Shown piece after piece: positions 5,957 through 29,077 of a DNA stretch of 32,000 nt. The position numbers were made by a program, and so were the translations under genes. Source of the DNA: Candidatus Hadarchaeota archaeon. GTDB lineage: Archaea; Hadarchaeota; Hadarchaeia; Hadarchaeales; Hadarchaeaceae. The notes under the pieces are model-generated. The model saw only the letters and a program-made list of their open reading frames with translations. It searched no databases and was not told where the DNA came from. Each line of letters starts with the position of its first letter. Position 1 is the stretch's first letter. The DNA is taken from contig CAZETV010000002.1 in the NCBI GenBank assembly GCA_964514965.1, positions 90,001 through 122,000 of the forward strand, given 5' to 3'.

Positions 5957-5984
5957 TAAACCAACCTCGGCGTTTCAAACGCTG

Positions 5985-7687: not shown

Positions 7688-7732
7688 CAAACAATTTCAG
7701 TAATGTCTACGGAACCAACTCTTCAAACAGAC

Positions 7733-8296: not shown

Positions 8297-8389
8297 TGGC
8301 TATCCCAAACAGTTTATTGGCGACGATATAACTAAAATGCTTAAAAAACAGTGCAACCTTCGCAAAACAGACCCTGCAACGGGTCAACG

Positions 8390-9631
8390 CTAAGTTTTTT
8401 TCGTTAGCAGCTCAACAACAGGCATTTTCTCGCCAGAAAGAAAACTTATGCATGCGCCGCCGCCAGTGCTGATATGTTTTATCCGGTCGGTAACTCCTGC
8501 TTCACGCGCAGCTGCCACTATATGTCCTCCGCCGATTATTGTGAAAGCTTGGGAGTTTGCCATGGCTTTAAGCACTTTGAAAGTTCCCTGTTCGAATCCT
8601 TGCTTTTCAAAAATTCCCAGCGGACCATTTATGACGACAGTTTTCGCCCCCAAGATTACCTTCGAGTACTCCTCGACCGTTTTGCTTCCAATGTCTCCAA
8701 TAGGTAGGTCTGTCGGGAGCTTATCTACTCCTAGTTCTTTCGGTGTTTCTTTCTCCTCAACAATTAAGTCAGAAGGAATTTTTATCTTGTCTCCGTGCTG
8801 GGAAAGCAAACGCTTAGCCCGCTCTATTTCTTCACCAAAACCTTTATCGAGCAAAAATTGTAGGTTCAGCTTACCCAAATCCTTGCCACTTGCCGCAAGA
8901 AGGGCATGCCCGACCAAGCCCCCCGTTAACACGAAGTCCGCAATACCCTTAGCAAATACATTTTCGATTATGGTGAGTGAATCATCAGCTTTCGCGCCCC
9001 CCAACACATAAACGGAGGGGTGCTCAGGAGTCAACGCGCGACCCAGCCCTTTGAGTTCACGTTCCATAAGCCGCCCAGCAAAGGTCGGCAGCACAGCGCC
9101 AAACCCAACCAAAGAAGGCTGGGATCGGTGGGCTGCGCCGAACGCATCATTCACGTAGATATCTACAAGTTCAGCGAGCCTTTTAACTAGATGAGTTTTC
9201 GCCATCTTCTCGGGAGAACCTTTCAATGTTTCCTCGGCGCAGAATCTTACGTTCTCAAGCAGCAGTATCTCACCCGATTGCATTTTCTGGATTTCGGACT
9301 TGGCCGTTGGCCCGAAAATGTCCGGGATATATTTAACATCTAAACCGACATCAGCACTCAATTTTTTCGAGTGTTCCTCCAGAGTAGTGAAATCTTCATC
9401 GCCAGGCCTCCCTTGGTGGGCGAGAACGACGACTTTTGCTCCTTTTTCTGCCAGTTCTTTGATGGTAGGAGCACATTCTCTTATCCGCGTGTCGTCTAAG
9501 ATTTCACCAGTTTTTGGGTCGATGGGTGCGTTTATGTCCACTCGCACGAGCACTGTCTTTCCTTTAACTTCAGCCTTATCGAGGGTAGGAAATTCCAAAC
9601 CTTTCACCCCATACGCCAGCACGGGCGTCAT
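8390..9631 (-). CDS. pgk: Phosphoglycerate kinase
   Basis: 413 aa with GKTVLVRVDINAPIDPKTGEILDDTRI, LAHQGRPG, AFGAAHR and ISTGGGA. Confidence 0.95.
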   Translation of the reverse strand: MTPVLAYGVKGLEFPTLDKAEVKGKTVLVRVDINAPIDPKTGEILDDTRIRECAPTIKELAEKGAKVVVLAHQGRPGDEDFTTLEEHSKKLSADVGLDVKYIPDIFGPTAKSEIQKMQSGEILLLENVRFCAEETLKGSPEKMAKTHLVKRLAELVDIYVNDAFGAAHRSQPSLVGFGAVLPTFAGRLMERELKGLGRALTPEHPSVYVLGGAKADDSLTIIENVFAKGIADFVLTGGLVGHALLAASGKDLGKLNLQFLLDKGFGEEIERAKRLLSQHGDKIKIPSDLIVEEKETPKELGVDKLPTDLPIGDIGSKTVEEYSKVILGAKTVVINGPLGIFEKQGFEQGTFKVLKAMANSQAFTIIGGGHIVAAAREAGVTDRIKHISTGGGACISFLSGEKMPVVELLTKKT

Positions 9632-9659
9632 GACAAATTATTTCTTAAAATTGCCCCCA

Positions 9660-10661
<1,002 letters not shown>

Positions 10662-10725
10662 TTAAACCCCTCCTAATTCATTCACCAAAAACGTTATTTA
10701 AACTTTTTCGTCACCCCATTCTTAG

Positions 10726-10736
10726 CTAATAATTAG
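10726..10736. promoter_or_regulatory. 11-bp perfect palindrome CTAATAATTAG in the gap/rbkR divergent intergenic region (candidate operator)
   Basis: Read directly from the sequence. It lies about 100 nt upstream of the rbkR ATG. Any functional assignment is speculative. Confidence 0.25.
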
Positions 10737-10832
10737 TTTTCTACACGAAAAAACGTATCTTCTCACCCATACATAGGCCAATTGTCTCATTTTTTAGACG
10801 CTTAACATTTTTGGTAAGATTTAAAAGCTAGT

Positions 10833-11519
10833 ATGCTCCGTTTGACTAGGGATAACTTGGGTAAAAAGACCACTACCGAGATTTTGCTTTTGCTGGCCAA
10901 GGAAGGAGCGCATCTAGAAGACCTGAAACTTTCATTGAGCTGGCTTGCGGACAAACTAGATATTTCAAGACAGACTGCAGCGCGGCGGCTACTTGAGCTT
11001 GAGAACCAGGGCCTAATCAAACGAGCGCTAGGGGCCCGCGGTCAGAACGTGCGTATAACACCGACAGGCTTGGCAAACTTGCGCTTAATGCATCGAGAAC
11101 TCGAGGCGATTTTTGGATTGAAACCGCGTTCGTTTAAGTTAACTGGCCGGATAATCTCGGGTGTGGGCGAAGGCAGCTATTACATGAGTCAGCGAGGCTA
11201 CCGCGAGCAATTCGAACGCGAACTAGGTTATACTCCCTATCCGGGGACGCTCGACATTACTCTTGACGAAGCATCGCTTGATCTCAAGGCGGTGCTCATG
11301 CAACTTCCCGGCAAACATGCCGAGAGCTTTAAAACAAATGAACGAACTTTTGGTCAAGTGAAATTTTTCCCAGCTAAATTGAGAAATAAGAAAGCTGCCC
11401 TGATTTTGCCATTTAGGAGCCATTATACTGACATCATTGAACTCATCGCGCCGAAGAAACTGCGTGAGAGCCTGAAGCTTAGGGATGGCGATGTCGTTCA
11501 AGTGGAGGTGATAGTCTGA
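10833..11519 (+). CDS. rbkR: Winged-HTH regulator fused to CTP-dependent riboflavin kinase (RbkR type)
   Basis: N-terminal HTH (LADKLDISRQTAARRLLELENQGLI) plus a C-terminal archaeal RibK core (GRIISGVGEGSYYMSQ..Y..QFE..LGYTPYPGTLDI). It is the first gene of the rib cluster. Confidence 0.85.
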   Translation: MLRLTRDNLGKKTTTEILLLLAKEGAHLEDLKLSLSWLADKLDISRQTAARRLLELENQGLIKRALGARGQNVRITPTGLANLRLMHRELEAIFGLKPRSFKLTGRIISGVGEGSYYMSQRGYREQFERELGYTPYPGTLDITLDEASLDLKAVLMQLPGKHAESFKTNERTFGQVKFFPAKLRNKKAALILPFRSHYTDIIELIAPKKLRESLKLRDGDVVQVEVIV

Positions 11520-11560
11520 TTATCGACAGCGCTCTCGAAGCACTCCGCGCGGGTAATTTT

Positions 11561-13074
<1,514 letters not shown>

Positions 13075-13078
<4 letters not shown>

Positions 13079-13737
13079 GTTTGGATCTAGGCAAGGTTGG
13101 TATCTTGGCCCTTGGATCTCACGAAGAGCGCCATGGTGCGGCCTTGCCTCTCGACACCGACGCCAAGCTAGCTTCACATGTCGCGCTTGAAGCAGCCAAA
13201 CGCACTGGCGCGGAGTTCTTAGGGACACTCTACTCTTCTTATGAGTTACCCTACATCGATACAGGGCGCCACCAGACGCTCGAAGAGGTGATGGAAGAGC
13301 TTAGGGCAAAGCTACAAACGGCAAAACAAATACTGGGTATACAATGCGTTGTGCTGGTCAACGCACACGGGGGAAACAATCCTCTGCGTGACCATATTCA
13401 AGAGCTCGAACAAGAGACCAGCTTGCGGATTATTTTTAATAATAAAATTATTGAGCTTGAAGGTCCCCACGCCGCGACAGGTGAACTGAGCATGGGGGCT
13501 GTAATCGGCATAACAGATGTTTCAAAAATCGTGGAGCACTCTGATTTCGAGCGTTATCCCGAGGTCGGGTTCGTCGGGTTGAAAGAGGCAAGAATAAATT
13601 ATCAATGGGCGGAACGACAGGCCCGAGAGGTTGAAAGGATGGGTGTTCATGCCGACAAATTCTTAGGTGAAAAGCTCTTGGAATGCGCGATTATCAATGT
13701 GGTGAACGATATTCGCAAGCTAGAAACTTTCCACTAA
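13075..13737 (+). CDS. arfB: Creatininase-family amidohydrolase, probable ArfB (FAPy deformylase of archaeal riboflavin synthesis)
   Basis: Creatininase metal-site motifs LGSHEERHGAALPLDTD, NAHGGN and GPHAATGELS. It is translationally coupled (4-nt overlap) to ribH. Confidence 0.7.
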
Positions 13738-13831
13738 ATAAGCGAGTCAAACAGATTGAATTATCTATCGTTTGGTGAAAGCTTTACACAGCATTTTAAT
13801 TTACATGGCAAGTATTTGGGTTAGGGTTTAA

Positions 13832-14596
13832 GTGGAGTTCATCGTCACTCAATTGGCTTACCTTTTGCTCGGAATTGCAACTGGGATATTATCCGGCACA
13901 TTTGGTATCGGGGGCGGAACTTTAACCACCCCTGCAATGCGGGATTTGTTAAGGACGCCCGGACATGTAGCTCTCGGGACCCCTCTACCGATAATCATCC
14001 CTACTGCATTCTCAGGCGCGCTGGTATTCCACAGGAAGAGAATGTTGAAGTATAGAATCGGAGCAGTTTGTGCGCTCGCGGGTTCGGTCACGGCTTTACT
14101 CGGCGCGACTGCGACCGTTTACTTTACTGGCAGAGAAATGATGTTGATAACGAGCGCATTCATAGCCTTGCTAGCGGCTAGGTTCGCATTTGCAGGCAAA
14201 GAACCAAAGCCTAAGGCAAAAACAGCCCCAACAAAATTGCTGCTTCGGGCAACGTTTATCGGCCTCGCTGCTGGAGCTCTTTCTGGTTTCCTCGGTGTGG
14301 GTGGAGGCGTTATCTTAGTGCCAGCTATGGTGTTATTGTTAAACTTCCGCGTGCACGAAGCGGTGGGAACCTCGCTCATGGTCATGGTGATATATGCAAT
14401 TCCCGGCTCGGTAGCTCATTACTTGCTGGGCCATATCGATGTCGCCCTGCTGCTCCCCATTGCAATAGGATCAGTCTTTGGGGCACAATTCGGAGCAAGA
14501 CTCGCCGTTAGGACAAGAGAGAATCGTTTGAGGCTTGCGTTTTCATTTTTCCTGTTTGTGGTCGCCGTTAGCATGGCGGTATTCGAGCTTTTGTGA
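13832..14596 (+). CDS. TauE/SafE family (DUF81) anion exporter
   Basis: 254 aa and polytopic, with duplicated halves each starting with the G-rich motif (GTFGIGGGTLTTPA and GFLGVGGGVILVPA). Confidence 0.85.
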   Translation: MEFIVTQLAYLLLGIATGILSGTFGIGGGTLTTPAMRDLLRTPGHVALGTPLPIIIPTAFSGALVFHRKRMLKYRIGAVCALAGSVTALLGATATVYFTGREMMLITSAFIALLAARFAFAGKEPKPKAKTAPTKLLLRATFIGLAAGALSGFLGVGGGVILVPAMVLLLNFRVHEAVGTSLMVMVIYAIPGSVAHYLLGHIDVALLLPIAIGSVFGAQFGARLAVRTRENRLRLAFSFFLFVVAVSMAVFELL

Positions 14597-14914
14597 CTGG
14601 TCGCATCGCCGATTCAAGTTCGACAATAATACTTAGTCCCGATTCAAACTACAGATTTAGATTCATAGCCCAAAAACGGATTCCGCCCGTCAAGCATCCA
14701 TATGATAAAATATCACCATATTTATTCAAAATTTAGCCAATCTGCCATTTTTCAGCTGATGCGTGATCAGAGAAAAAACAGAAACGAAATTTGCACCTAA
14801 AAATCTTGTTCTCGGGTGCTGTGTCGCATCAATCTTAATTAATCGACGATTGTCATTGTATATATTGGAGACTGAGCCAACAAGAGAGTAACAAAATCAC
14901 CGAGGTAATCTAAC

Positions 14915-15043
14915 ATGCGAAAGAAACAAAAGCGAGATTGGAAGGCCCATAACGACCAGATCGTAAAGCGAGGCGAGCTGTTGCTCGATTCCGACTTTGT
15001 CGAGAACTGGGAGAAAGAGCTTGAAAAGATGAACCAAGGCAAG
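14915..15043 (+). mobile_element. Remnant of an IS5-type DDE transposase N-terminus, fused in frame to the downstream isomerase
   Basis: MRKKQKRDWKAHNDQIVKRGELLLDSDFVENWEKELEKMNQGK follows the W-x2-[YH]-N-x2-[LI]-V-x-RG-x-L...W pattern of IS5-family transposase N-termini. Similarity stops at about 15043. Confidence 0.45.
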
Positions 15044-16369
15044 ATTCCTCCGAAAGTCGGATTGATTACGGTTTCTTTGCAGCGCGAGGAAACGGAGTTA
15101 GCATCTAAATGGGATCGGCTAGCCTACGAGAAACTCAAAGAGGCAGGATTGGATGTGATGCACCGCGAAGAATTGTCATTGACTGTTCAAAGTACTTTAG
15201 AAACTGCCAAGGAATTTAGAGATGGAGGCGTATGTTGTTTAATATTCTTAGTAGGGACTTGGGTTTACGCCCCCCAAATAGTCACGACAGTTAGAGAGAT
15301 ACACTCACCTTTTATTCTTTGGGCATTACCCGATCCGAAAACTTTCTCTCTAACCGGAGCAGGGGTAGTGCACGGCTCACTTGATGAGATGGGTATCAAA
15401 CATAAGCTAATATATGGGTCTCCTGAGAATCCTGAAGTCATCAATAAAATTGCTGAGTACTCAAAAGCCGCAATGGTCGTCAGGCATCTTTCCAAATCGC
15501 GCTTTGGTATGTTCGGCGGCAGAACGGGAGGCATGTATACAGCGATGGCGGATATGGCCCAAGTTAAAAATTTATTCGGCGTTGAATACGACCAAGTAGA
15601 CCAGCACCGCCTGATTATCGAAGCTCAAAATGTGCCGGATGAAAAAGCCCAAGAAATGTTGGATCGTGTCAAAAGCGAGTTTGGTCGGATAGAACCCCCT
15701 AACGATGTCATGATAAAGTCAGCCAAGTTATATCTCGCTTTGAAGAAAATAATCTCGGAAGACGACTACAACTTTGTCGGCATTAAATGTATGCCCGAGG
15801 TTGCAGATAATTACGTGTCATGTTGTCTCGCAGTTTCTCTCATCAACGACGATGGTATAGTTACCTCTTGTGAGTGCGATGTCAATGCTGCCTTGACGAT
15901 GCAGATACTCAAACTATTGACTGGGGGCCCTGTACTTTTTGCGGATGTGAACCATGTCGATATGAAGGAGAAAGTCTTGAGGCTCGTGAATTGCGGCTCC
16001 ATGCCAACTGGGCTCGCAAAGTCGAGAAATGATGTCGACTTAGGGATGCAGTATGAGTACCTGAGCAAAACAGGTGGAGCAACTACCACATTTTGCTGCA
16101 AGCCTGGCAGGGTGACGCTCGCACGGCTCGCTAGGATAAAGGGCCAGTATGTCATGCAGATAGCTACTGGCGAGGCCGTCGAACGCCCAAAGGAGGAATT
16201 TAAGGAAGCTAGAATCAAATGGCCACATGCGTTCATCAGGCTCGATGGGAACCCTGAAGAGTTTCTCCAAAATTGCCGGAGCAACCACCACCATATGGGA
16301 TATGGGGACATCAAGGGGGAATTATTAGCAGTCTGTAATATCCTCAACATCAGGCCGATTGTGACATAA
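14915..16369 (+). CDS. L-fucose/L-arabinose isomerase family protein
   Basis: 484 aa in which GGVCCLIFLVGTWVYAP, FGMFGGRTGGMY, FVGIKCMPE and a C-terminal GYGD-type ending fit the FucI-like sugar isomerase fold family. A likely functional start is ATG 15029 (MNQGKIPPKVGLI). Confidence 0.75.
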   Translation: MRKKQKRDWKAHNDQIVKRGELLLDSDFVENWEKELEKMNQGKIPPKVGLITVSLQREETELASKWDRLAYEKLKEAGLDVMHREELSLTVQSTLETAKEFRDGGVCCLIFLVGTWVYAPQIVTTVREIHSPFILWALPDPKTFSLTGAGVVHGSLDEMGIKHKLIYGSPENPEVINKIAEYSKAAMVVRHLSKSRFGMFGGRTGGMYTAMADMAQVKNLFGVEYDQVDQHRLIIEAQNVPDEKAQEMLDRVKSEFGRIEPPNDVMIKSAKLYLALKKIISEDDYNFVGIKCMPEVADNYVSCCLAVSLINDDGIVTSCECDVNAALTMQILKLLTGGPVLFADVNHVDMKEKVLRLVNCGSMPTGLAKSRNDVDLGMQYEYLSKTGGATTTFCCKPGRVTLARLARIKGQYVMQIATGEAVERPKEEFKEARIKWPHAFIRLDGNPEEFLQNCRSNHHHMGYGDIKGELLAVCNILNIRPIVT

Positions 16370-16472
16370 TCAATTTGCGATATCTTTTTTTATTGACATT
16401 AAAACTTTGCTTGGTCTTTCAGCGCCCAGAGCTTCAGCAGGAGGCACATGTCTGTTGTATCAAGCGGTTTCG

Positions 16473-16712
16473 TTATTCCAAGTGCTTAAGCTCTTTCCCA
16501 ACCTCGAGGAGCGCCCACGCCCAAATCAGACACTCGAAGCTCTTTATCAAATCTCCGCACTCGAGGAAGTGTTTCGAGTCCTCGCGGTACGCCTTGATGT
16601 TAGAGAGCATTTCCGTTCCCCGCTCATCAACGGCATTTGCAGTGGAGAGAGCTTTGTCGAGTTTGGTAGTCCACTTTTTTATCTCTCGAGTCAATTCACT
16701 TTCTAAAGTCAT
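16473..16712 (-). CDS. DUF357-family small protein
   Basis: 79 aa and helical, with the NIKAYREDSKHFLECGDLIKSFECLIWAWALLEVG pattern. It overlaps the dph5 stop by 4 nt. Confidence 0.55.
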   Translation of the reverse strand: MTLESELTREIKKWTTKLDKALSTANAVDERGTEMLSNIKAYREDSKHFLECGDLIKSFECLIWAWALLEVGKELKHLE

Positions 16713-17497
16713 CTAATCACATCCTCAGAAGCTCCAGCGAACACACGGAGTGCTTCTGCCTCCACGAAGTGAAGCTTTCCCGGTACGATGAGCACATGCG
16801 GTGCAGGGCCGAAGTCTAATTTACGTAGCCTTTCTACCTTATCAGCTTTGAGAATAGCATCATCCGAACCAGCTCGTGCCACGACTAAAGCAAGTGTATC
16901 TTGAGTGAAAGCATTTTTTTTCAATTTTTTCTCCAGCTCGAGCATTATTTCAATTGCCTCATTGGCAGTCATCGCCCGCCTTTCTTCGGCTCGGATGTCG
17001 AGCAGAAGTAACGTGTGAAGTCCTCGACCGCGATTTTCGACCAGTACTTCGTAGGGCTTCCGAGACGGGTTGTCGGGAAATGGAACCGTAGCCGTGCGTC
17101 CGAACTTGTAGCTTTGCAACCCCGCCAGCCCAGCCGCAACTGAAGCAATCGATGCGGCATGAACAATTTTTGTTTCAATATCAGCTTTGGCGGCTCGCAG
17201 GCGTAGATCGATGTGCGTGGTCGCCACCATCGGATCGCCAGGGACTATGAATGCCACCTTACTTGTTTTAGCAATTTCGAGAATTTCTCCGGGCTTTTGT
17301 TCAACGGTTTTTCGATCAACAACGTGAATTGGACTGTCAATTTTTAGTTCCAATTCTTTTAAGTTGAGTCCGGGTATGATGCTTGTGTAGAACTCGGCAT
17401 ACACGACATCGGCTTCTTTTGCTACCTGCAGTCCCTGAAGCGATATCCCCTCACCATGCAAGCCAAGCCCGATGAATACAAGCATAGTATCATACAT
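16709..17497 (-). CDS. dph5: Diphthine synthase
   Basis: MLVFIGLGL...VYAEFYTS...AFIVPGDPMVATTH...GL.SYKFGRT.T.PF... is a full-length tetrapyrrole-methylase-fold Dph5 pattern. Confidence 0.95.
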   Translation of the reverse strand: MYDTMLVFIGLGLHGEGISLQGLQVAKEADVVYAEFYTSIIPGLNLKELELKIDSPIHVVDRKTVEQKPGEILEIAKTSKVAFIVPGDPMVATTHIDLRLRAAKADIETKIVHAASIASVAAGLAGLQSYKFGRTATVPFPDNPSRKPYEVLVENRGRGLHTLLLLDIRAEERRAMTANEAIEIMLELEKKLKKNAFTQDTLALVVARAGSDDAILKADKVERLRKLDFGPAPHVLIVPGKLHFVEAEALRVFAGASEDVIR

Positions 17498-17636
17498 TAT
17501 TTGAAATAGTTAAGAAAAGCTCTACCGCTTCTACACCAAGGTATAAATTTCTAGATTATTTTGAACTCGGAGGGACATAACTATTTCGTGAAATTGCATC
17601 GTAAACGCTTAATTTGGCTGGACGGTATATTCGTTC

Positions 17637-17735
17637 GGGCCCGTGGCTCAGTCTGGTAGGTGCCTCTGAAGGGCAGCCAAAAGCAATCGGCTCTTAACCG
17701 ATCGGTCGAGGGTTCGAATCCCTCCGGGCCCGCCA
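17637..17735 (+). tRNA. tRNA-Lys(CTT) with a 22-nt intron in the D-arm and an encoded CCA
   Basis: Acceptor GGGCCCG/CGGGCCC, anticodon arm ATCGG-CTCTTAA-CCGAT, T-arm GAGGG-TTCGAAT-CCCTC, discriminator G, then CCA. The D-stem GCTC...GAGC only forms after removing 17660-17681 (GTGCCTCTGAAGGGCAGCCAAA). Confidence 0.85.
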
Positions 17736-17753
17736 TCAAAAATCCCCAATCTG

Positions 17754-17775
17754 AGCAAGATTCTTGCTTATTTTT
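17754..17775 (+). terminator. Hairpin plus T-tract directly after the tRNA
   Basis: AGCAAGA-T-TCTTGCT (7-bp perfect stem) followed by TATTTTT. Confidence 0.4.
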
Positions 17776-17776
17776 C

Positions 17777-17965
17777 GCAAAAATCCTGCCCGAATCCTGC
17801 TCAACTTTTGCCTGAAAATTGCACGAAAGATTTAAACGCCGCACCACAAAAATTATACAAAAATCCTGCTCGAATCCTGCCCGGTTCTTGCGAAAAATCG
17901 TTTGATAGATTTGAATGATAGCAGTCGTCTAGCCGGGGCACCAAAAACATGCGAATATCCTGCCC
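17777..17965 (+). repeat. Composite repeat block, copy A (189 bp identical to 29078-29266)
   Basis: Compared base by base with copy B with no mismatch. The wider repeat-like context spans 17736-18030 and holds three tandem ~80-97 nt units, each with a pair of ATCCTGC heptamers. Confidence 0.95.
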
Positions 17966-18034
17966 GAATCCTGCTCTATTTTTGCGAAAGATCGTTTGAT
18001 AGATTTGAATGATCTAGCCGAGAGAAATTTAACT

Positions 18035-18075
18035 TTATATAACAATCGAAAGTTTTTTTAAAGGTTGTTATATAA
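18035..18075. promoter_or_regulatory. Perfect 11-bp inverted repeat TTATATAACAA-N19-TTGTTATATAA upstream of abiEi (candidate operator over TATA-like boxes)
   Basis: Read directly from the sequence. It ends 10 nt before the AbiEi ATG. AbiEi antitoxins are known autorepressors that bind inverted repeats. Confidence 0.45.
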
Positions 18076-18084
18076 ATAACTATC

Positions 18085-18714
18085 ATGAAAACTTTGACGA
18101 GATACCTGCTATCGAGCTTCGGCGGGGGCGTGGTGACGAGGGATGAGGTCAAGGCGGCGTGCAGGAAGTTCAGGGCAAGCTACGCGAGCACTGTAAACTT
18201 CATGATATCCTATGGATACCTGATCAGGATCCTCCGGGGGCTGTACTACGTCAAGACCCTCGAGGAGTTCAAGCTGGGGAAAGCTGTGGACGTTCACAGG
18301 GCGATCTCCCTCGGCCTGAACAGGCTGGGGGTCGGCTGGTACTTCGGCCTCTACACCGCGCTCAGGCTGAACGGCCTCGTCCACGAGTTCCCCGGCGTCA
18401 CCTTCATCGTGAACGACAGCATATTCAGGCCGAAGGAGATAGAGATAGCTGGGGGGAAGACGAGGTTCTTGAAGCTAAAACGCGGGCTCTTCGGCTTCGG
18501 GGTTGTTGACAAAGGCGGCGTTAAATTCTCCGACCCCGAGAAAACGGTCTTGGATCTCGTCTATTTTTCTAGGTACCGCGGCCTGCCGGGGGAGAGGATA
18601 ATCTCGATGATAGGCGAGTACGGCGAGCGTTTGGAAAAGGAGAAGCTCGAGGCCTACTTGAAATTTTATCCGAAAACCGTCGAAGGGGTTATTAGAGATG
18701 CCGGACTTGTCTGA
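18085..18714 (+). CDS. AbiEi-like antitoxin / transcriptional regulator (type IV TA)
   Basis: N-terminal wHTH ending in YGYLIRILRGLYYV, a C-terminal SDPEKTVLDLVY-type segment, and a 17-nt overlap with the downstream AbiEii gene. Confidence 0.75.
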   Translation: MKTLTRYLLSSFGGGVVTRDEVKAACRKFRASYASTVNFMISYGYLIRILRGLYYVKTLEEFKLGKAVDVHRAISLGLNRLGVGWYFGLYTALRLNGLVHEFPGVTFIVNDSIFRPKEIEIAGGKTRFLKLKRGLFGFGVVDKGGVKFSDPEKTVLDLVYFSRYRGLPGERIISMIGEYGERLEKEKLEAYLKFYPKTVEGVIRDAGLV

Positions 18715-19624
18715 GTTCGTCTCATTCGTCGCCCGTAAATCCAAAGTGAAGAACACCAGCTTGATAGAGAAGGATGTGATGCTGCACAGGATACTCAAGG
18801 AGTTCTGCTCATCTCCACTTTCGGCGAACTATCTTTTCAAAGGGGGTAGCTGCTTGGTCAAATGCTACTTTGGCTACTACAGGTTCAGCGTAGATCTTGA
18901 TTTCACGTGGCGTGATCAGGAGGCGTGGAAGGGGCTGGGGGAAAAAGGGCTGAGGAGAAAGCTGTCGGCGGAGATAAAGCGCCTCGCCTCATTTCTGGCG
19001 AAAGTTTCGGGAGAATTGAATCTCGAGTTCAAGGTTGAGCCGGGGGAGAGGAAGTTTATGGAATTCGGCGGGGGAGGGAGGATGGCAACTTTCAAGCTTT
19101 GGAAGGGATCAGAGCTGATAAAAATTCAGGTGAATTTTGTGGAGAAACTGCTGTTTCCCCCGAAGGTCGCCAGGGCAAGGATTTTGCTGGACGGGGTTAA
19201 ATTATCGAGGGATGAGCGGGTGTACTTCGGAGAATTCTTGGATTTCTACAGACCCTTCAAGCTGATGGCCTACGACGAGAGGGAGATCTTGTGCGAGAAA
19301 GTCAGGGCTATTCTAACGAGGAGGGCCCAAAAGCTGAGGGACTTTTACGATCTGTTCGTGCTCTCCACGCACGGTTTTAAGCTGGAGGATTTGAGGGGGG
19401 AGATAGCCGAAAAGGTGAGGGCCTCGCTCTATTACAGGAAGTACCGGGAGAATCTCGATCGGAACAGAAAAGAGTTGGAGGTAGATGTGGGAACTCTGGA
19501 GGATCCATTTGAGAGGAGCTTGCTGATGGTGAAACCACGGAAGGATTTTGAAGATTTTCTCAAGCTGGCGCGAGAGGGGCTGAGGGAAATAGCGGATGGC
19601 GTTATCTCTGGAGGAACTTTATGA
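18698..19624 (+). CDS. AbiEii/AbiGii-family nucleotidyltransferase toxin (DUF1814)
   Basis: LFKGGSCLVKCYFGYYRFSVDLDFTW is the hallmark NTase motif of the family. 308 aa. Confidence 0.85.
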   Translation: MPDLSEFVSFVARKSKVKNTSLIEKDVMLHRILKEFCSSPLSANYLFKGGSCLVKCYFGYYRFSVDLDFTWRDQEAWKGLGEKGLRRKLSAEIKRLASFLAKVSGELNLEFKVEPGERKFMEFGGGGRMATFKLWKGSELIKIQVNFVEKLLFPPKVARARILLDGVKLSRDERVYFGEFLDFYRPFKLMAYDEREILCEKVRAILTRRAQKLRDFYDLFVLSTHGFKLEDLRGEIAEKVRASLYYRKYRENLDRNRKELEVDVGTLEDPFERSLLMVKPRKDFEDFLKLAREGLREIADGVISGGTL

Positions 19625-20097
19625 CACATGATTACGGCGTGAAAGGGTTCGCCATTTTTTCCGGCTAACTCTGAAGGGGAGGTCAGGGAGATGCTGGACG
19701 CGATCTGGGGGATTGAAAAAGCAGCACTGATTGCCGTGAAAGTATGTTTTATCCCCCTTATTTGGAACGTTGCCAGCCCTACCAAAAACCATCCAACCCC
19801 CCACAAAAAATCAGACATTATTTCAACTACCTGTTTTTCCATCCTCTACTCTCACCTCAAGAAAAATATAAGCTCCCGCTAATAGTCAAGGGGGCATAAA
19901 TGGGTAAAGAAAGCCATGATAAACTCAAAGATTCCAAACATCTGCCACCTGCGTTCAAAATACTTGTTGACTTTGCCGAGGAACGCGGACTATTCAAAGA
20001 AACATCAGAAAATAATAGGAATAGAATCACCTCTTGCGTGGCTGCAGACCGCCACGAGAAAACCGATCGCGTAGATTGTGGCTTGAAGAGTATCACC

Positions 20098-20732
20098 TCA
20101 CCCAGCGAGAAGTTCGTTAATCGCTTGTTCGGCTTCGACGATGTCGTGAAAATTAGTTCTGCGCAAGATGTTCGAGACGGCCTGCTTCGATGTGCGAAAA
20201 TGTTTTGCCATGTCAACATGTTTCGCGTTAGGGTGGGTTTCGAGGTAATCTATAACCTGAGTCTGTCTGCTCGTCCATTTTTTCATCAGGCACAAGACGA
20301 GTCGAACCAGTGCGTTCAGCGTTCGGTCCTTTCGTTCATCTCTCGAGTTAATCACCGCCTCTGTCCTTTCCCGCCTCGCCTTCTCCAGAGCATCGCGGGA
20401 TCGGTAAAAGGCTAGGCCGTCCATTTCGAGAACGTTTTCGCTTAGGGACGTGCTTATCTCTCCGAAACCAACGCCACAGCGGAATCCGACACCCATCGCG
20501 CTTAGGTGGCGCCTAATTTCTTTGAACATTCGGTACGCCTTACTGGGGGATATTAGGGCACCTTGGAACTCGTCTCCCCGGGTGATTGCGAAGTCCGCCT
20601 GCAAATCTTTTCCAAACTCGCGGTTGAGGCGGCGGACCAACGACCGAACCCTGCGCTGGACGAGGGGCCGATTCTTCAATTTTCTGGATTCCTTCAGGTC
20701 TACAGTGATAACACAAAAGTTTTTCCCGTCAT
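20098..20732 (-). pseudogene. SatD-family protein with C-terminal HTH, N-terminus displaced by a 1-nt frameshift in an A5/T5 run
   Basis: FAITRGDEFQGAL, GFRCGVGFGEI and MDGLAFYRSRDAL are SatD motifs. The in-frame upstream sequence FCVITVDLKESRKL matches the SatD N-terminus but has no start codon. ATG 20730-20732 is out of frame by one nt, across the run at 20720-20724. Confidence 0.75.
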
Positions 20733-20927
20733 AAATACACTTCCGAGAGTTTACTTTAGTGAGTAAACCTTTTTAGATTTACCTCCCCTACAAAACTCCA
20801 AGCTCGACCACGAAGTGGAGGACCTCATTCACATGGGATGGATCCACCACCTCGGCCCCGGAACTTCCTCGAAAACACGGGGAGAGCAACATAAATCTTT
20901 ATTTTTGATATGTTTTCCATTTTTTAA

Positions 20928-21320
20928 TTAATATATTTACTGACCTTTGGCAAACCTGCATATGTGGAGAAGTACCAGATATCGCATGCAGAGGCGATCA
21001 AAATGATCGAGAGGGTAAACGGCGTTCCAGTGCTCGCTCATCCAGTTTTCGCGCACGCTGACGACATGCTCCCGGAGTTGGCCGAACTCGGCCTTGGCGG
21101 GATCGAGGTCTACCACAGCAAACATGACGCTCAAACGACCAAGTATTACGAACAACTGGCGCAGAAATACGGCTTGTTGATCGTTGGGGGATCTGACTCC
21201 CACGGTTCGGATATACCAGTCGGGAACGTGCGGATACCCTACTCCCTCGTCGAGAAGCTTAAAATGGAAAGGAATGATATACAGGCGAAGCAGAAGAAAC
21301 CGATTTTACCCAATATCTGA
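20928..21320 (+). pseudogene. C-terminal fragment of a PHP-domain (TrpH/YciV-like) phosphoesterase
   Basis: FGKPAYVEK...AIKMIERVNGVPVLAHP...GLGGIEVYHSKH...LLIVGGSDSHG covers only the last ~115 aa of a normally ~220-280 aa protein. Homology begins abruptly after an AT-rich stretch, and no PHP N-terminal DLHxHT motif is found upstream in any frame. Confidence 0.7.
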
Positions 21321-21650
21321 TAGAGCGCATATTTAGTCAAACGGTTGTGACACCAACTATTTTTTTGGCGGGCTTGGGCGATCGCGGACAAATAACCGGG
21401 TCCAGTTCCCGTCGTGCTCGGGTGTGAAAAGGGAAGAATGGAGAACCTCCCACCCCTGCCAATATTTCCGCATTAACATAGCACGCTTCTGAGTCGCCCG
21501 AAGCCATTCGCCCCGCCTAATGTTTAGGGAAATAAATTTAAATAAGCTTCATCTTTAAATTACAAGGAGGTAATGAATTCGTGATTTGGATCAAGTACTG
21601 GTATTCTTGTGGTTCACCAACCGAGGTACATGTCTGTGAGGTTGTAGGGA

Positions 21651-23483
21651 TTGACAGAACTACATAAAAGATGCGGCTTGGCGGCGGCTTTGACGCTAGT
21701 TCTTGTTTTACTAATCGGCTCCGGTATTCCCACCCAAGCTCAGCCCTTTGACCGCCCCACGCTCAAAACGCCGGATAACGAGTACATAACCAACGACAAT
21801 ACTCCGTACTTCAGCTGGGAAAATATCACAGGTGAAAACATACTCAAATTCCATCTTGTAATAGATAACGACTCAAATTTTGCGGACGGCGAGAATTTCT
21901 ACTACAATTCAAACTTGATTGATAACTTTGACAACTTCGACACGCACTCGGAGAACGCGCTACCTGAGGGGATATGGTACTGGAAGGTTAGAGCAGAGAA
22001 TGCAAATGGGCCGGGCCCCTGGTCCGGTGTCAGGTGGTTGAAAGTCGACGTAACCTCTCCGACGGTTCAGATCTCCGTCAACACCGCTATGGTCTTCGAC
22101 AATTATGTCGGCGCAGACAACTTCGTGGTTACGGCAACGTTCAGCGAGAATATGGACAACACGATTACCCCAACCATCACCTTCACCCCCGACGTGTCGT
22201 TGGATACTTTAGAGAATGTGGTCTTCGCTTGGACCGTCGATAACAGCGTGTGCACGTGGACTTACGATGTGGATGATGAGGGTGTGGAGAACTTGGGCGT
22301 GGACGTGACGATTAGCGGTGGGAAGGATTTGGCAGGGAACGATCAGGTCGACAACACTGGAGAGAACATGTTCTCCGTCGACACCCTAGCGCCTGTTGCC
22401 CCAACGTTGGTGTCGCCCGAGAACAACGAGAACACGAATGACAACACCCCGAACCTCGATTGGGGTACTGTCTCGGATGCCAGCCTGCCGGTACTCTACC
22501 GCGTCCACGTGAGCGATAACTCCCAATTCCCATATGACAACGTGGATTCAGGCTGGATCTCTGACGATAACTACATCACCTCCGAGCTCGCTGAGAGCGT
22601 GTGGTACTGGCGAGTTCACGCGAAGGATAACGCTGGTAACGTGGGAGACAAATCAGCGTCTCGCTCATTCAGGGTCGACATAACTGCGCCTGTTGCCCCA
22701 ACGTTGGTGTCGCCTGATAATGGGGCACAGACGGCTGATAGCACCCCAACGCTCAGTTGGAACGTCGTGAACGATAACTCGCTCCCCGTGACATATGATC
22801 TTCAAGTCGATGATGATTCCGACTTCTCTACGCCCACGGAGAACGTTTCGGGCCTTACCGACTACAGCTATGCCACATCAAGCTTGGCGGATGGGACATG
22901 GTACTGGCGTGTCCGGGCAAGGGACAACGCTGGTAACGCAGGCAACTGGTCATCGAGGTTGTTCACAGTGGACACAACAGCTCAAGCAGCACCTGCCCTC
23001 ACTGCGCCAGCCAATGGCGCGTTCACGAACGATAGCACTCCAACCTTCGACTATGGGTCGATTTCGGGTGCATCGAGTTATACCCTCCAGTACACGACCG
23101 ACAGCGGGTTCACACAAAACCTCACGACGATCTCGAGCACCGCAACGGATTACATTCCGACAGCAGCGTTGGCTGATGGGACATGGTACTGGCGCGTGCG
23201 AACGGTTGATGCCGTGGGCAACATAGGCGGCTGGTCGAGCACTTGGTCCTTCACTATCGACACCGTAACACCAACCGTGACGATATCGCCCTCCCTCGAG
23301 GCCACGCCAACGGCTACCGGCTGGACCTTGACCACCACGGACAGCAGCATCGAGATCAGCGGCTCGGTTACAGACGCGACTGGCGTAACAGTCAAGATAG
23401 ATGATGTAGAGGTGACCGTAGTCGATCGCAGCTTCCGCAAAACTGTAAATTTGATGGTAATAGGTGTGAACACATTCACCTAG
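21651..23483 (+). CDS. Secreted/cell-surface repeat protein (signal peptide, four WYW[KR]V beta-sandwich repeats, Ig-like spacer domains)
   Basis: N-terminal signal-like LAAALTLVLVLLIGSGIPTQAQP. There are four ~97-aa repeats, each with TNDNTP..[FLS]W and [IT]WYW[KR]VRA.[DN].[AN]G motifs. The ORF ends at a TAG that looks premature (see next feature). TTG start. Confidence 0.8.
   Translation: MTELHKRCGLAAALTLVLVLLIGSGIPTQAQPFDRPTLKTPDNEYITNDNTPYFSWENITGENILKFHLVIDNDSNFADGENFYYNSNLIDNFDNFDTHSENALPEGIWYWKVRAENANGPGPWSGVRWLKVDVTSPTVQISVNTAMVFDNYVGADNFVVTATFSENMDNTITPTITFTPDVSLDTLENVVFAWTVDNSVCTWTYDVDDEGVENLGVDVTISGGKDLAGNDQVDNTGENMFSVDTLAPVAPTLVSPENNENTNDNTPNLDWGTVSDASLPVLYRVHVSDNSQFPYDNVDSGWISDDNYITSELAESVWYWRVHAKDNAGNVGDKSASRSFRVDITAPVAPTLVSPDNGAQTADSTPTLSWNVVNDNSLPVTYDLQVDDDSDFSTPTENVSGLTDYSYATSSLADGTWYWRVRARDNAGNAGNWSSRLFTVDTTAQAAPALTAPANGAFTNDSTPTFDYGSISGASSYTLQYTTDSGFTQNLTTISSTATDYIPTAALADGTWYWRVRTVDAVGNIGGWSSTWSFTIDTVTPTVTISPSLEATPTATGWTLTTTDSSIEISGSVTDATGVTVKIDDVEVTVVDRSFRKTVNLMVIGVNTFT
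21753..23261 (+). repeat. Four intragenic ~97-aa repeats (21753-22049, 22386-22679, 22680-22973, 22974-23261)
   Basis: Manual alignment of the protein. An exact 29-nt DNA repeat GCGCCTGTTGCCCCAACGTTGGTGTCGCC at 22389-22417 and 22686-22714 marks the starts of repeats 2 and 3. Confidence 0.7.
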
Positions 23484-23707
23484 CCGTAACCGATGCCGCG
23501 GGCAACACCACGACGCGAACATTGGAAGTCATCCGAGCTGGAGTTGAGCCACCTCCTGTCGCAGAGCCCGCAATCTCGTCTGAGCAAGCCGTGTTCATAG
23601 CCGCGCTCGTCGCGTTATTCATCATCCTGATAGTTTTTGTGAAGATGGTTCTTGTTAAGAAACCTGCGGAACCTGTCCCAAGTTCTGGCCTCCCACCGAC
23701 GAGATAA
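23477..23707 (+). CDS. Frameshifted C-terminal continuation of the surface protein (Ig-like strand plus C-terminal TM anchor)
   Basis: The frame shifted by -1 reads HLAVTDAAGNTTTRTLEVIRAGVEPPPVAEPAISSEQAVFIAALVALFIILIVFVKMVLVKKPAEP... This continues the ...GVNTF sequence naturally and ends in a hydrophobic helix followed by basic residues. Confidence 0.65.
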   Translation, partial: HLAVTDAAGNTTTRTLEVIRAGVEPPPVAEPAISSEQAVFIAALVALFIILIVFVKMVLVKKPAEPVPSSGLPPTR

Positions 23708-24007
23708 CGGCGCAAGTGATGGAGAAGCTTATCAAGGTGCCCCAGAGCTATTGCGCCAAGTGTTGAAAGAAATAGGACTAGACCGGGAGATCGCGGAGCT
23801 AGCCCGAGGCGGGTAATGGGGGGTTTTGAGCATTAATCTAGCAAAAGCTCGGATTACCTCCTGTGCCCCTTTTCTATTTTTTGCGCTCATGCCAAGTTTG
23901 AAAAGTTTAGTCCAACAGTTGGGCCTACACAACTTGGCTATTATAGTTTCGATAGGGGGCGAAATAACCCCATCCCCCGAAACCCCCGAAAGAGGCGCTG
24001 AGTAGAC

Positions 24008-24493
24008 ATGATAGTAGAACGGATAGGAGCCATAACATGCGAGATCCTTCCGGATTCGGGAAATATCATGTCCAGGGCTCAGGAAGTGTTCAGGGAATTG
24101 GGAGAGGTGGAGCAGCGCCTCCGAATCACCGAGCGCAAGCTTTATCGCTTGAAGGAGGGTAGCTGGTCGTATACGAAGAACATGCTAAGGTTTGGGTTCG
24201 CGTCATGGGTCTTCGGCCTTTCGATTTTCTTTTTAGCGGTCGTGGCAATGAGTACCGAACTTTTTGGAGGGGTTCCGCTGACTTGGAGCTCCTTGCTCGT
24301 GGGGACCCCCTTGCTCGTGGGAGCCCCCGCAGCGCCCATGATGATGACGGCTGCGTCGGTCCGCAAGTTTGACACCAAGATAAAGCGCCTCAGACACATC
24401 CGAAGTGGCCTAGCGGTAAAGTACACTAGAGCCCTCTACCAGTACCAGAGGGCCTCCCTCCAATATTTGAAGCAGGCGGGTTCTACTGGGTAA
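24008..24493 (+). CDS. Hypothetical membrane protein (coiled-coil N-terminus, two TM helices)
   Basis: 161-aa ORF with the hydrophobic segments FGFASWVFGLSIFFLAVVAM and LLVGTPLLVGAPAAPMMMTAA. No family recognised. The start may be the second ATG (MSRAQEVF). Confidence 0.5.
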   Translation: MIVERIGAITCEILPDSGNIMSRAQEVFRELGEVEQRLRITERKLYRLKEGSWSYTKNMLRFGFASWVFGLSIFFLAVVAMSTELFGGVPLTWSSLLVGTPLLVGAPAAPMMMTAASVRKFDTKIKRLRHIRSGLAVKYTRALYQYQRASLQYLKQAGSTG

Positions 24494-24775
24494 GATAAAT
24501 TGTTTCGTAAAAATGGTTTTTCTGGGCAGTAATTCAGTTTTATGTCCAAAACCGATTTAACCCCCTCGCTCAAAATCACTTTCGTGCACTCTCGTGTATT
24601 GTAAAACACTTCATTACTTTAAAAGGATCAAGCGCCCCTGAGCCTAAATGATAAAGATTAATAAGTTGACTACGCAGCTGGGATTGGGTACAATTTGGAT
24701 TCGGACAGGCTTGACATTATCCTATGAACAACATCCGCGCTGATCTCGTCGATAGGTTCGCATGAGCTATTCCAA

Positions 24776-25552
24776 GTGATAGTAGATAATGCCAAGGAGA
24801 TATCCGGTGCAAAGTTCGTTTCCCTATCTTTTTTCAACGAGGAGAGGGACACGGTTAAACTCGGCGCGCTGTCGGGCCCCGAACCTTCTTTGTTAAGAAA
24901 GGTATCAGAGATGTTAAAAATAGAAAATCTATTTCGCCACGGGTTCCCGGTCAGCAAGTGTCCAAGTTTTCAGGAGTTCTTAAAGAAGAAAGAGAGAAAA
25001 CCTGTCATCCTCAGCGGCTTTCACGAATACACCTTTGGATTGTTCGATAAAAGGATATGTAGTCTAATCGAAAAAATTGTGGGCTTTGAGGAGGTAGTGG
25101 CGATTCCGTTACTGAAAAATGAAAAGGTGGAGGGAATTTTAGGTTATTTATTTCCTACCAAGGAAAAGCGTGACTTCACCCCACTGCTGATTTTTGCAGA
25201 CCTCGCATCTCAAGCTTTAGAAAAATCAAAAATGTTTGAAGAACGGTTGAGGGGAGGGAAGGTCGCTATAATGAGCGAATATCTCGCAGGAGACATTATT
25301 AGAGAGTTCGGCGTTAGAATTCCAGTGGGAGAGTTAGGTTCGCGAGAGATTTTAGGACAGCTGGCTGACCTTGCTACTAAGCCTCCGCCCCGGAATTTAT
25401 TCAACCTATTAGTCGCCGGGACGCACATAGCTCTCAGTCAAGAGGGAGTTGAGGTAAGCGAAGTAGAGATCCGTGAATTCTTGGCCCCCAATCATCAGAA
25501 GATTCCTTCAGGAAGGAATGGTATGAGAACCTTGACAACCATGAGAATATAA
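24776..25552 (+). CDS. GAF domain followed by the N-terminal half of a PLD (HKD) domain; 5' piece of a split gene
   Basis: GAF pattern: VIVDNAKEISGAKFVSLSFFNEE...VVAIPLLKNEKVEGILGYLF...LLIFADLASQALEKSKMFE. The C-terminal HIALSQEGVEVSEVEIREFLAP parallels AILGAADRGVEIKFMVP of the second PLD domain in the next ORF. Confidence 0.7.
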   Translation: MIVDNAKEISGAKFVSLSFFNEERDTVKLGALSGPEPSLLRKVSEMLKIENLFRHGFPVSKCPSFQEFLKKKERKPVILSGFHEYTFGLFDKRICSLIEKIVGFEEVVAIPLLKNEKVEGILGYLFPTKEKRDFTPLLIFADLASQALEKSKMFEERLRGGKVAIMSEYLAGDIIREFGVRIPVGELGSREILGQLADLATKPPPRNLFNLLVAGTHIALSQEGVEVSEVEIREFLAPNHQKIPSGRNGMRTLTTMRI

Positions 25553-25596
25553 CTGTTTTAACATTCCTAGCGAATATAACGCTGCACTCCAAGTAC

Positions 25597-28854: not shown

Positions 28855-28871
28855 GACCAGAGTTCAAAAAA

Positions 28872-28903
28872 GGGCGGCTTGCCGCCGCCCGCTCTCTTCT
28901 TTT
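28872..28903 (+). terminator. GC-rich hairpin plus T-rich tail after the giant ORF
   Basis: GGGCGGC-TTGCC-GCCGCCC (7-bp stem) followed by GCTCTCTTCTTTT, 18 nt after the stop codon. Confidence 0.5.
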
Positions 28904-29069: not shown

Positions 29070-29077
29070 AAAATCAT

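Follow-up and report, generated by a model that had tools for sequence, protein, structure and literature searches.

Tandem genomic islands at transfer RNA (tRNA) and transfer-messenger RNA genes, as catalogued by Islander (PMC4383910) and described in archaea (PMC8371274), combine an intact tRNA gene, 3' fragments of it in the same orientation, an empty site in relatives and a stacking of elements. Tyrosine integrases cross over at preferred sublocations of the tRNA gene, namely the anticodon loop, the T loop and the junction of T-stem and acceptor stem (PMC4383910). Moreover, archaea are on record as hosts of tandem integration, of integrated elements that lack an integrase, and of module exchange between elements in tandem (PMC8371274). 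The subject of the present analysis is a stretch of 32,000 nt from a Candidatus Hadarchaeota archaeon (GenBank assembly GCA_964514965.1, contig CAZETV010000002.1, positions 90,001 to 122,000; hereafter the window), in which three repeat blocks, A, B and C, punctuate an insertion behind a tRNA-Lys(CTT) gene. These blocks are probably the attachment-site (att) DNA of small, integrase-less elements that form a tandem array at the 3' end of the tRNA gene and are moved by an enzyme encoded elsewhere. The locus shares with tandem tRNA islands the intact tRNA, the co-oriented 3' fragments, the crossover sublocations, the empty site and the stacking. It differs from them in having no integrase, in elements of 1.15 kb or even of 70-135 nt without cargo, in internal fragments that come from other tRNAs, and in a conserved arm of phased 11-mers. 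It is, in other words, a familiar kind of genomic island in an unusually stripped-down form. What is new is the host phylum, the extreme miniaturisation, the phased 11-mer arm and the fact that a single arm family employs several tRNA acceptor ends. An earlier inspection of the letters alone, called here the sequence-only reading, had found the array unlike any described archaeal element; this was too strong, given the published cases, archaeal and bacterial, of tandem integration, integrase-less elements and module exchange (PMC8371274, PMC4383910, PMC3146451).

Other described systems share part of this logic. Cis-mobilizable elements and accretion arrays, such as ICESt1-type elements and the ssrA islands of Dehalococcoides (PMC3146451), also consist of att-bounded elements without an integration module, placed in tandem behind one RNA gene, with a conserved motif beside each direct repeat and strain-variable content. 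Those arrays, however, include integrase-bearing members and their recombinase, serine or tyrosine, is known, whereas no autonomous partner was seen in the arrays examined here, the host is an archaeon and several tRNA acceptor ends are in use. The tycheposons of Prochlorococcus (bioRxiv 10.1101/2020.12.28.424599) resemble the locus in carrying cargo at a few tRNA genes, in newcomers that push older elements inward, and in scattered partial tRNAs and remnants, but recombinase and replication genes of their own are part of their definition, and the elements described here have neither. Integrons and integrase-less clusters of attC sites (CALINs), including archaeal ones (PMC9668308), are alike in their short cassettes rich in toxin-antitoxin genes, their recurring site of 60-140 nt and a possible integrase elsewhere; in contrast, the present locus lacks attC structure and cores, IntI and attI, its cassettes have their own promoters, and its insertion point is a tRNA 3' end. 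The description offered by the sequence-only reading, an integron-like or serial-integration cassette array, is borne out in part. Serial integration agrees with a tRNA insertion for which an empty site exists, with genuine tRNA 3' ends, and with units or stubs at the borders of cassettes, both in this array and in two more from Hadarchaeota, while the integron-like part, with no attC-like R''/R' pair or hairpin to support it, survives only as a loose functional analogy. Integrative mobile elements exploiting Xer recombination (IMEX) are integrase-less elements that use the host XerCD at dif and form tandem arrays at one chromosomal site. They are like the present elements in their dependence on a foreign recombinase and in their tandem arrays; the target here is a tRNA 3' end and not dif.

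The insertion measures 12.8 kb (17736-30555) and lies between tRNA-Lys and a gene for a DUF362 protein. The tRNA-Lys(CTT) gene at 17637-17735 has the anticodon loop CTCTTAA, an intron of about 22 nt in the D-arm and an encoded CCA, and block A does follow a real tRNA-Lys, as had been proposed. Because the intron interrupts the gene, ARAGORN miscalls it as Ala and the Rfam match covers only the 3' two-thirds (17671-17732). To the left stand genes for PGK, GAPDH, riboflavin synthesis and diphthine synthase, and to the right those for the DUF362 protein and aldehyde:ferredoxin oxidoreductase (AFOR). Two assemblies of one relative, L054 and L053 (diphthine synthase 87% identical), carry the empty site, with the order AFOR, DUF362, tRNA-Lys, diphthine synthase and about 200 bp between the protein genes nearest the tRNA; orthologous tRNA-Lys genes lie beside the diphthine synthase gene in L054-L057. 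At the far end of the insertion, the 3' end of the tRNA recurs in the same orientation (17707-17736 versus 30527-30556, 80% identity over 30 nt), and the last 14 nt of the displaced copy, TCCGGGCCCGCCAT, are identical to the intact gene. An intact tRNA together with a displaced 3' copy is the standard signature of tRNA-gene integration (PMC4383910). The target and the parts of the island, in window positions, are as follows.

17637 to 17735, plus strand: tRNA-Lys(CTT), integration target and left att site of the island.
17736 to 17776, plus strand: U0, whose first 21 nt or so (TCAAAAATCCCCAATCTGAGC) are similar to the sequence natively found downstream of tRNA-Lys in relatives (L054 empty-site alignment).
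Within 17736 to 17776, plus strand: second part of U0, a partial unit start with the palindrome AGCAAGAtTCTTGCT.
17777 to 17846, plus strand: unit A1 (type X1), with 11-mers, the GATTTAAACG box and the 8-nt stub CCGCACCA; 19 nt fewer than full units.
17847 to 17943, plus strand: unit A2 (type X2), with three 11-mers, AAATCGTTTGATAGATTTGAATG and a stub ending GCCGGGGCACCA, tentatively tRNA-Gln-like.
17944 to 18020, plus strand: unit A3 (type X3), complete in its body but with a stub that stops after CTAGCCG; the E1 promoter and cargo come next.
18021 to 29026, unstranded: E1 cargo, from Pfam, NCBIfam and PHROGs scans and a six-frame Pfam scan of the unannotated 4.1 kb.
29027 to 29066, plus strand: stub s3, right end of E1, an arm end (TAGATTTAAACG plus GTAGCTTAAAACCTAC) fused to the tRNA-Leu-type acceptor end CTCCCCCGCGCCA; profile match at 29022-29054.
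29067 to 29244, plus strand: units B1 and B2, equal to A1 and A2 from 29078 on.
29245 to 29299, plus strand: unit B3, truncated by a deletion between two TTGA repeats (aligned with A3, L063, L061, L058 and L059).
29300 to 30342, plus strand: element E2, the MNT-HEPN cassette (Pfam), with identical borders in L063, L061, L058 and L059.
30343 to 30387, plus strand: stub s5, a decayed tRNA-Leu(CAG) 3' half with variable arm, T arm, acceptor strand and CCA; right att site of the MNT-HEPN cassette.
30388 to 30457, plus strand: unit C1 (type X1), with one 11-mer fewer.
30458 to 30555, plus strand: unit C2 (type X2 body), its arm (...GCTTGAACCTAT) fused to the tRNA-Lys acceptor end CCGGGCCCGCCA; right att site of the whole island.
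30556 to 30587, plus strand: flank, from the displaced stub to the resumption of clear chromosomal homology (GCGGTACGAGTAAACTCAATCGAG).

The last of these segments, 30556-30587, has weak similarity both to the native flank of relatives and to a unit start. The deletion in B3 took away its stub and also the left arm (TTCAACAGC...CATCTTGA) with which the MNT-HEPN cassette begins elsewhere.

The perfect identity of blocks A and B extends over exactly 189 nt (17777-17965 and 29078-29266), and about 40 nt beyond it are related yet diverged. Block C (30388-30528) aligns to B (29067-29218) with 133 matches, 8 mismatches (94% identity) and a single 11-nt gap, which corresponds to the loss of exactly one 11-mer. 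Both the identity of A and B and the description of C as a shortened near-copy, as first noticed in the letters, are thereby borne out. The repeated motifs are strongly concentrated. With at most one mismatch, AATCCTGCYC occurs 20 times in the window against 4.4 expected, a count that none of 100 shuffles reached, and 15 of the 20 lie inside the three blocks on the plus strand; GATTTRAAYG occurs 8 times against 0.39 expected, always in or adjoining the blocks, and no shuffle was as high. The doubled block also exists in an independent short-read assembly. In the Logan assembly of SRR14802574, the same DNA is present in three contigs that end 30 nt inside the repeats. One, leading from the tRNA into the repeat, ends at window position 17806; the others span 17936-29107 (from the repeat through AbiE and s3 to the repeat) and 29237-30446 (from the repeat into MNT-HEPN). 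Breaks at exactly these borders are what a k=31 graph produces at a true repeat, and the reads therefore contain two contexts on the left and two on the right of the 189-nt repeat. The A/B duplication is not an artefact of one assembler.

A profile built from nine units found copies only in tRNA-linked arrays, every one in the orientation of the tRNA, and those in the window lie in the blocks on the plus strand. It found none in window positions 1-17700 or in about 100 kb of other fetched Hadarchaeota chromosome, so that a dispersed, MITE-like (miniature inverted-repeat transposable element) repeat, named at the outset as a possibility that would undo the proposal, is not what is seen. The exact 20-mer ATCCTGCYCGAATCCTGCYC gave chance single matches and no related match in about 186,000 species-representative genomes and in the JGI metagenomes, and BLAST with whole blocks agreed with these pattern scans. 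Among viral contigs, the 20-mer likewise had chance single matches, and refined patterns gave nothing or chance matches (L052, L060); the one in L052 falls in a phage coding region. Block BLAST against phage and plasmid collections found no match, and the translation of block C, searched for relatives of a spurious open reading frame (ORF), had none. The L060 contig (IMG/VR UViG_2634166325_000001, 10040-10146) is a bacterial-looking prophage end in which AAAATCCTGCCCCAATTCTGCCCC comes after a tyrosine-integrase C-terminus and before a tRNA on the opposite strand. The position of this 11-mer pair between integrase gene and tRNA is curious, yet one match is about the chance frequency.

In the alignment of units, a common plan is visible. 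Each unit contains three to four tandem 11-mers (AAATCCTGCYC), a box, a T-arm-like segment, and the acceptor strand and CCA of a real tRNA. The 11-mers vary as AAAAATCCTGCCC, GAATCCTGCYC and GRTTCTTGCSS at a spacing of exactly 11 bp; the box is the 24-nt GAAATCGTYTGAnAGATTTGAACG, and the T-arm-like GCTTGAACCTAT follows it. Units are 70-108 nt long and have no spacers, so that either they abut directly or genes lie between them. A unit closes with ...CCA and its successor begins at once, and each has an A/T-rich start (CAAAAATTATAC). Across genomes the unit arm is about 77-79% identical, the 11-mers and the box being its best-conserved parts. Of the layout first described from the letters, the opening CAAAAAT plus 5 nt is present, but it is itself a degenerate 11-mer, and TT.TTGC is the last 11-mer. 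The blocks hold no inverted repeats at unit ends, no fixed-length target duplication and no subterminal hairpin at a left end, and no RYYYAAC...GTTRRRY (R''/R') pair was found within 40-160 nt in any block on either strand. Folding of units and blocks as RNA and as DNA was no better than that of shuffled sequence (z-scores -1.2 to +1.3), and Rfam assigned the window units to no family, tRNA-Lys being the sole match. The sequence-only reading was right to exclude a CRISPR array (units of 70-108 nt without unique spacers), terminal inverted repeats of insertion sequences (IS) and an attC-like palindrome; the conserved RNA structure for which it had proposed a search did not appear.

The ends of the units identify the target. 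Stub s5 matches the 3' half of the tRNA-Leu(CAG) of locus L063 at 38 of 45 positions, and stub s3 matches the tRNA-Leu(CAG) 3' end at 12 of 13; in neither comparison were any of 500 shuffles as good. The 8-nt stub of type X1, CCGCACCA, is the 3' end common to tRNA-Gly(CCC) and tRNA-Leu(CAG), and the stub of type X2 has weak similarity to a tRNA-Gln end (29 of 500 shuffles score as well). The resemblance of unit ends to tRNA 3' ends, noted earlier, is thus literal: they are genuine acceptor ends of tRNA-Leu, tRNA-Gly/Leu and tRNA-Lys. Blocks B and C do follow tRNA-end stubs, as the same reading had it, but these are not of different types, both being of tRNA-Leu(CAG) type. The stubs are decayed and range from 8 to 45 nt. 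The junction between arm and target sequence lies inside the tRNA, at the border of T-stem and acceptor, and not after the CCA. One and the same arm end is fused to different tRNAs, as ...CCTAT followed by CCGGCCGCACCA (Gly) in the arrays L058 and L061 and as ...CCTAT followed by CCGGGCCCGCCA (Lys) in the window. This joining of one arm to whichever tRNA adjoins is the strongest evidence for what appears to be recombination at the T-stem/acceptor junction. In addition, the direct repeats, 48 nt long in L063 and 41 nt long in L058, begin in the anticodon stem or loop, so that two of the known crossover sublocations are represented.

The related arrays were found through a search with the MNT protein of the small cassette, after which the contigs were fetched. 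In two other Hadarchaeota assemblies, the JGI metagenome contig L058 and L061 (NCBI GCA_054774235.1), units stand behind tRNA-Gly(CCC) and are fused to the Gly acceptor end. The L058 array reads tRNA-Gly(CCC), Fic, unit, inverted HEPN-MNT pair, unit, MNT with a large surface protein, and it closes with the 41-nt repeat of the tRNA-Gly 3' half. The two arrays have a common backbone that is 97-99% identical and differ by two clean indels, both bordered by ..CTATCCGGCCGCACC: a 135-nt cargo-less unit in L061, directly after ...CCGGCCGCAC of tRNA-Gly and hence at its exact 3' end, and a 1.2-kb HEPN-MNT cassette in L058 only. Presence and absence between close strains therefore follow att borders. 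In L063, the MNT-HEPN cassette has a genuine tRNA-Leu(CAG) on one side and, on the other, a 48-nt stretch that repeats the 3' half of that tRNA perfectly, with no unit repeats nearby. Its borders are the same in three tRNA contexts, the tRNA-Leu locus and tRNA-Gly arrays among them, with CACCA followed by TTCAACAGC... on the left and the tRNA-Leu half on the right. Because the L063 cassette ends at a tRNA-Leu 3'-half repeat that matches s5, this stub is the right att site of the 1.15-kb MNT-HEPN element. Many MNT homologues sit on contigs of 1.1-1.4 kb, which fits a cassette whose flanking repeats break assemblies; this is weak evidence, short contigs being common in that collection. A further MNT-HEPN cassette, in L059 (9144-9791 and 10001-11060), lies beside an AbiEii gene and has a decayed Leu-like stub ending GCACCA. 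It looks fixed and dead, because no tRNA or unit is nearby.

The target tRNA genes themselves differ among close relatives in their introns. The tRNA-Lys of the window has one D-arm intron, and the L054 copy (7146-7260) has the same plus a second intron after the anticodon. The tRNA-Gly of L058 (7227-7318) has an insert in the D-region; that of L061 (about 3120-3213, backbone 97% identical) has an intron after the anticodon instead. The displaced 3' half in L058 (14487-14527) resembles the tRNA-Gly of L061 more than L058's own gene. Since it fits the L061 version better, this suggests that an incoming element may have replaced the 3' half of the L058 tRNA-Gly. In L057 (9800-9845, minus strand of the locus), the CCA of tRNA-Lys is followed by TCAAAAGGAATGGGGGCCCCCACCA and then by CAAAAATTAAAG; here a GC hairpin of 25 nt and an ACCA mini-stub precede an A-rich start like that after the units of the window. 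DDE_Tnp_1 transposase genes of L053 (4460-5671) and L057 (5458-6645) belong to variable DNA near the diphthine synthase locus and are unrelated to the units.

The cargo consists of two cassettes. E1, of 11.3 kb, carries an AbiEi/AbiEii toxin-antitoxin pair, a SatD-like gene, a PHP-domain gene fragment, a 610-aa Ig-repeat protein and a 1085-aa protein with PLD and CBM96 domains. E2 is the 1.15-kb MNT-HEPN cassette with the tRNA-Leu att site; its MNT is a nucleotidyltransferase with an N-terminal winged helix and its partner is HEPN (Pfam). Ahead of the E2 genes, at 29300-29347, a palindromic region (GAAGTTAAC..TTTAAATATTT..TAACTTC) surrounds a TATA-like box. It is present also at L058 9960-10000, L059 9937-9981 and L063 9952-9995, with 92-96% identity across genomes, and is probably the operator through which the winged-helix MNT protein regulates itself. 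The window ORFs yielded no integrase or transposase, whole or in part (Pfam, NCBIfam, PHROGs), and neither did the unannotated 4.1 kb of E1 in the six-frame Pfam scan with stops masked. Gene tables and extra scans likewise gave no integrase in the L058, L061 and L063 arrays, and the loci fetched contained no autonomous relative of the unit-bearing elements. The integrase inside the island on which Islander-type searches rely is hence lacking. In effect, E1, E2, the L058 cassettes and the 135-nt unit of L061 are all att-bounded and without genes for integration and transfer, and the locus agrees with what defines a non-autonomous element that can be mobilised in cis or in trans.

Several further details concern the E1 genes. 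The ORF at 20964-21320 matches only the C-terminal third of PHP-family phosphoesterases (profile 173-258 of 259); this gene fragment is a sign of decay. The SatD-like protein is encoded at 20098-20679 on the minus strand (E = 1e-21), where the Logan gene call chose an overlapping 171-aa ORF (19900-20415, plus strand) without homologues. The 610-aa protein (21651-23483) is built of 297-nt Ig-like repeats and looks secreted. The 1085-aa protein (25597-28854), with PLD domains and three CBM96/NEW3 repeats of about 867 nt, looks secreted as well, and it may be N-terminally truncated, because its start lies within the PLD active-site motif. Analogous large Ig-repeat proteins are present in the L058 array.

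A mechanism that would unite these features can be outlined. The unit would be the conserved right-hand arm of one element family, and its three to four phased 11-mers may be bound by a recombinase or an accessory protein. At the T-stem/acceptor junction, this arm would be joined to the acceptor strand and CCA of whichever tRNA the element entered. Units and stubs that follow genes would then be the right ends of cassettes (E1 and E2), and the nearly adjacent units A1-A3, B1-B3, C1 and C2 would be cargo-less miniature elements or deletion scars. Because no element encodes an integrase, integration and excision would depend on a tyrosine recombinase supplied in trans, either by the host or by an autonomous relative, a logic similar to that of cis-mobilizable and other non-autonomous integrative elements. 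The present order is not the outcome of three separate entries at tRNA-Lys. X1-X2 precede both cassettes, A and B are perfectly alike and C is 6% diverged. Since no internal stub is of Lys type (they are Leu, Gly/Leu and possibly Gln), and since A equals B over 189 nt, the order points to accretion of composite pieces, recent homologous recombination between the X1-X2 repeats that they share, or both. In accretion, pieces would be excised together with upstream scars and re-integrated as composites. In homologous recombination, an 11.3-kb circle s3-X1-X2-A3-cargo could, for instance, recombine into a resident X1-X2. Tandem integrated elements of archaea are known to undergo either process (PMC8371274).

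A more specific version of this mechanism is put forward tentatively, as a possibility rather than an expectation: a dedicated cassette-exchange system in Hadarchaeota, in which a recombinase encoded elsewhere would recognise the arm of about 90 nt (phased 11-mers, box and T-arm mimic). Such a system would insert integrase-less cassettes of toxin-antitoxin, Fic and surface-protein genes, as well as cargo-less units of 70-135 nt, at the T-stem/acceptor junction of several tRNA genes (Lys, Gly, Leu and perhaps Gln).

A number of points weigh against the favoured explanation. The action in trans is deduced from the lack of a recombinase in the 32 kb of the window and in some 40 kb of related arrays, and we infer the role of the 11-mers as binding sites. 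No need for arm sites is known for archaeal SSV-type integrases. The internal stubs are not of Lys type, and a simple model of newcomers entering at the tRNA needs extra steps here. A chromosome without E1 together with an 11.3-kb circle would give an identical assembly graph, so the order with E1 flanked by A and B rests on the assembly. The two indels between L061 and L058 could be deletions by homologous recombination between units of about 100 nt and not site-specific events. Finally, the window's version of the unit appears to be rare, because the 20-mer ATCCTGCYCGAATCCTGCYC had no related match in the genomes and metagenomes searched.

The serious rival to an array mobilised in trans is that the blocks are relics only. 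They would be fossils of ordinary elements that once carried integrases, and all present variation, the identity of A and B and the L058/L061 indels included, would be a product of homologous recombination and deletion between repeats, with no site-specific system still active; it is in this last respect alone that the two readings differ. Archaeal elements are known to lose their integrase after integration and to exchange modules by homologous recombination (PMC8371274), the truncated B3, the divergence of s5 from tRNA-Leu and the PHP gene fragment all look like decay, and a perfect repeat of 189 nt is a good substrate for homologous recombination. Nevertheless, relics would hardly be expected to include an MNT-HEPN cassette with the same borders abutting ...CACCA in three tRNA contexts, one of them the clean 48-nt att duplication of L063, or a 135-nt unit exactly at the tRNA-Gly 3' end of L061; the arm, too, is kept across genomes, best in its 11-mers and box, and the six-frame scans revealed no integrase fragments. 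Extinction of the system is thus regarded as unlikely, though it deserves to be taken seriously. Much less probable still is a spurious duplication as the origin of the A/B identity. The DNA comes from a metagenome-assembled genome, and 189 nt exceeds what unpaired reads typically bridge, but the de Bruijn graph of Logan breaks 30 nt into the repeat and yields separate contigs with two contexts on either side, and the architecture recurs in the unrelated assemblies L058 and L061. Duplication by the assembler, which the sequence-only reading had named as a danger, is accordingly very improbable.

The remaining explanations concern the nature of the repeated unit. An element of MITE-like or single-strand type (IS200/IS605- or IS91-like) that inserts 3' of ...CCA and recreates its target would explain the head-to-tail pile-up, since every unit ends in ...CCA with the next immediately after it; moreover, some stubs have a hairpin 11-15 nt before their end (the T-arm-like segment, or GGGGGCCCCCACCA in L057), and cargo-less copies exist. 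It is nonetheless highly unlikely. A subterminal left-end hairpin, inverted repeats, a fixed-length target duplication and a TnpA or Rep gene are all missing, copies occur only in tRNA-linked arrays and in a single orientation, the junction falls within the tRNA at the T-stem/acceptor border, and direct repeats of 41-48 nt from tRNA 3' halves are the hallmark of tyrosine-integrase att sites. The units could also be genes for small structured RNAs (tRNA-like, split-tRNA 3' halves or C/D-box) transcribed from their A-rich start. The CAAAAATTATAC start could be an archaeal promoter, and in the plus strand of a unit, which has CCA at its end, one G-U-rich hairpin (ATCGTTTGA..TTGAATGAT) is possible. 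Against such genes, which have a very slight chance of being correct, stand an Rfam result limited to tRNA, folding equal to that of shuffles, stubs that are decayed to 8-45 nt, and the 11-nt phasing with its exact 11-nt indel, which points to recognition at the level of DNA. An integron-like platform, with blocks serving as attC-type sites that fold as single strands and cassettes inserted by an IntI-type integrase, can practically be dismissed, even though short toxin-antitoxin-rich cassettes are separated by a recurring site of 70-100 nt and integrons and integrase-less attC clusters are reported in 3-4% of Hadarchaeota genomes (PMC9668308). The blocks have neither the R''/R' pair nor folding beyond that of shuffles, the window holds no IntI, the cassettes bring their own promoters, one L058 cassette is inverted, and the sites close with tRNA 3' ends that are duplicates from the tRNA genes beside them.

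Two further candidates were ruled out. One frame is open across block C, and the units might have been what is left of an SSV-type integrase gene, from its N-terminal part; the 11-nt period, the 11-nt indel and a translation without homologues exclude this. Operators of toxin-antitoxin genes were excluded as well, since one block precedes two unrelated cassettes, and the conserved palindromic promoter region of each cassette lies outside the block.

Almost nothing has been described of the mobile elements of Hadarchaeota, a group of uncultured archaea from the subsurface. In the arrays described here, variable genes, namely toxin-antitoxin or defence-type cassettes and large secreted proteins, are housed in tRNA-anchored arrays of very small integrase-less elements. 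The units account for the assembly breaks at this locus, and islands of this kind would escape Islander-type searches and other tools that depend on an integrase. If movement in trans is true, the unit is a searchable recombination site, and a recombinase with loose tRNA specificity is predicted. A cassette system working in trans would then, if it exists, be a functional analogue of the integron whose insertion sites are the 3' ends of tRNA genes.

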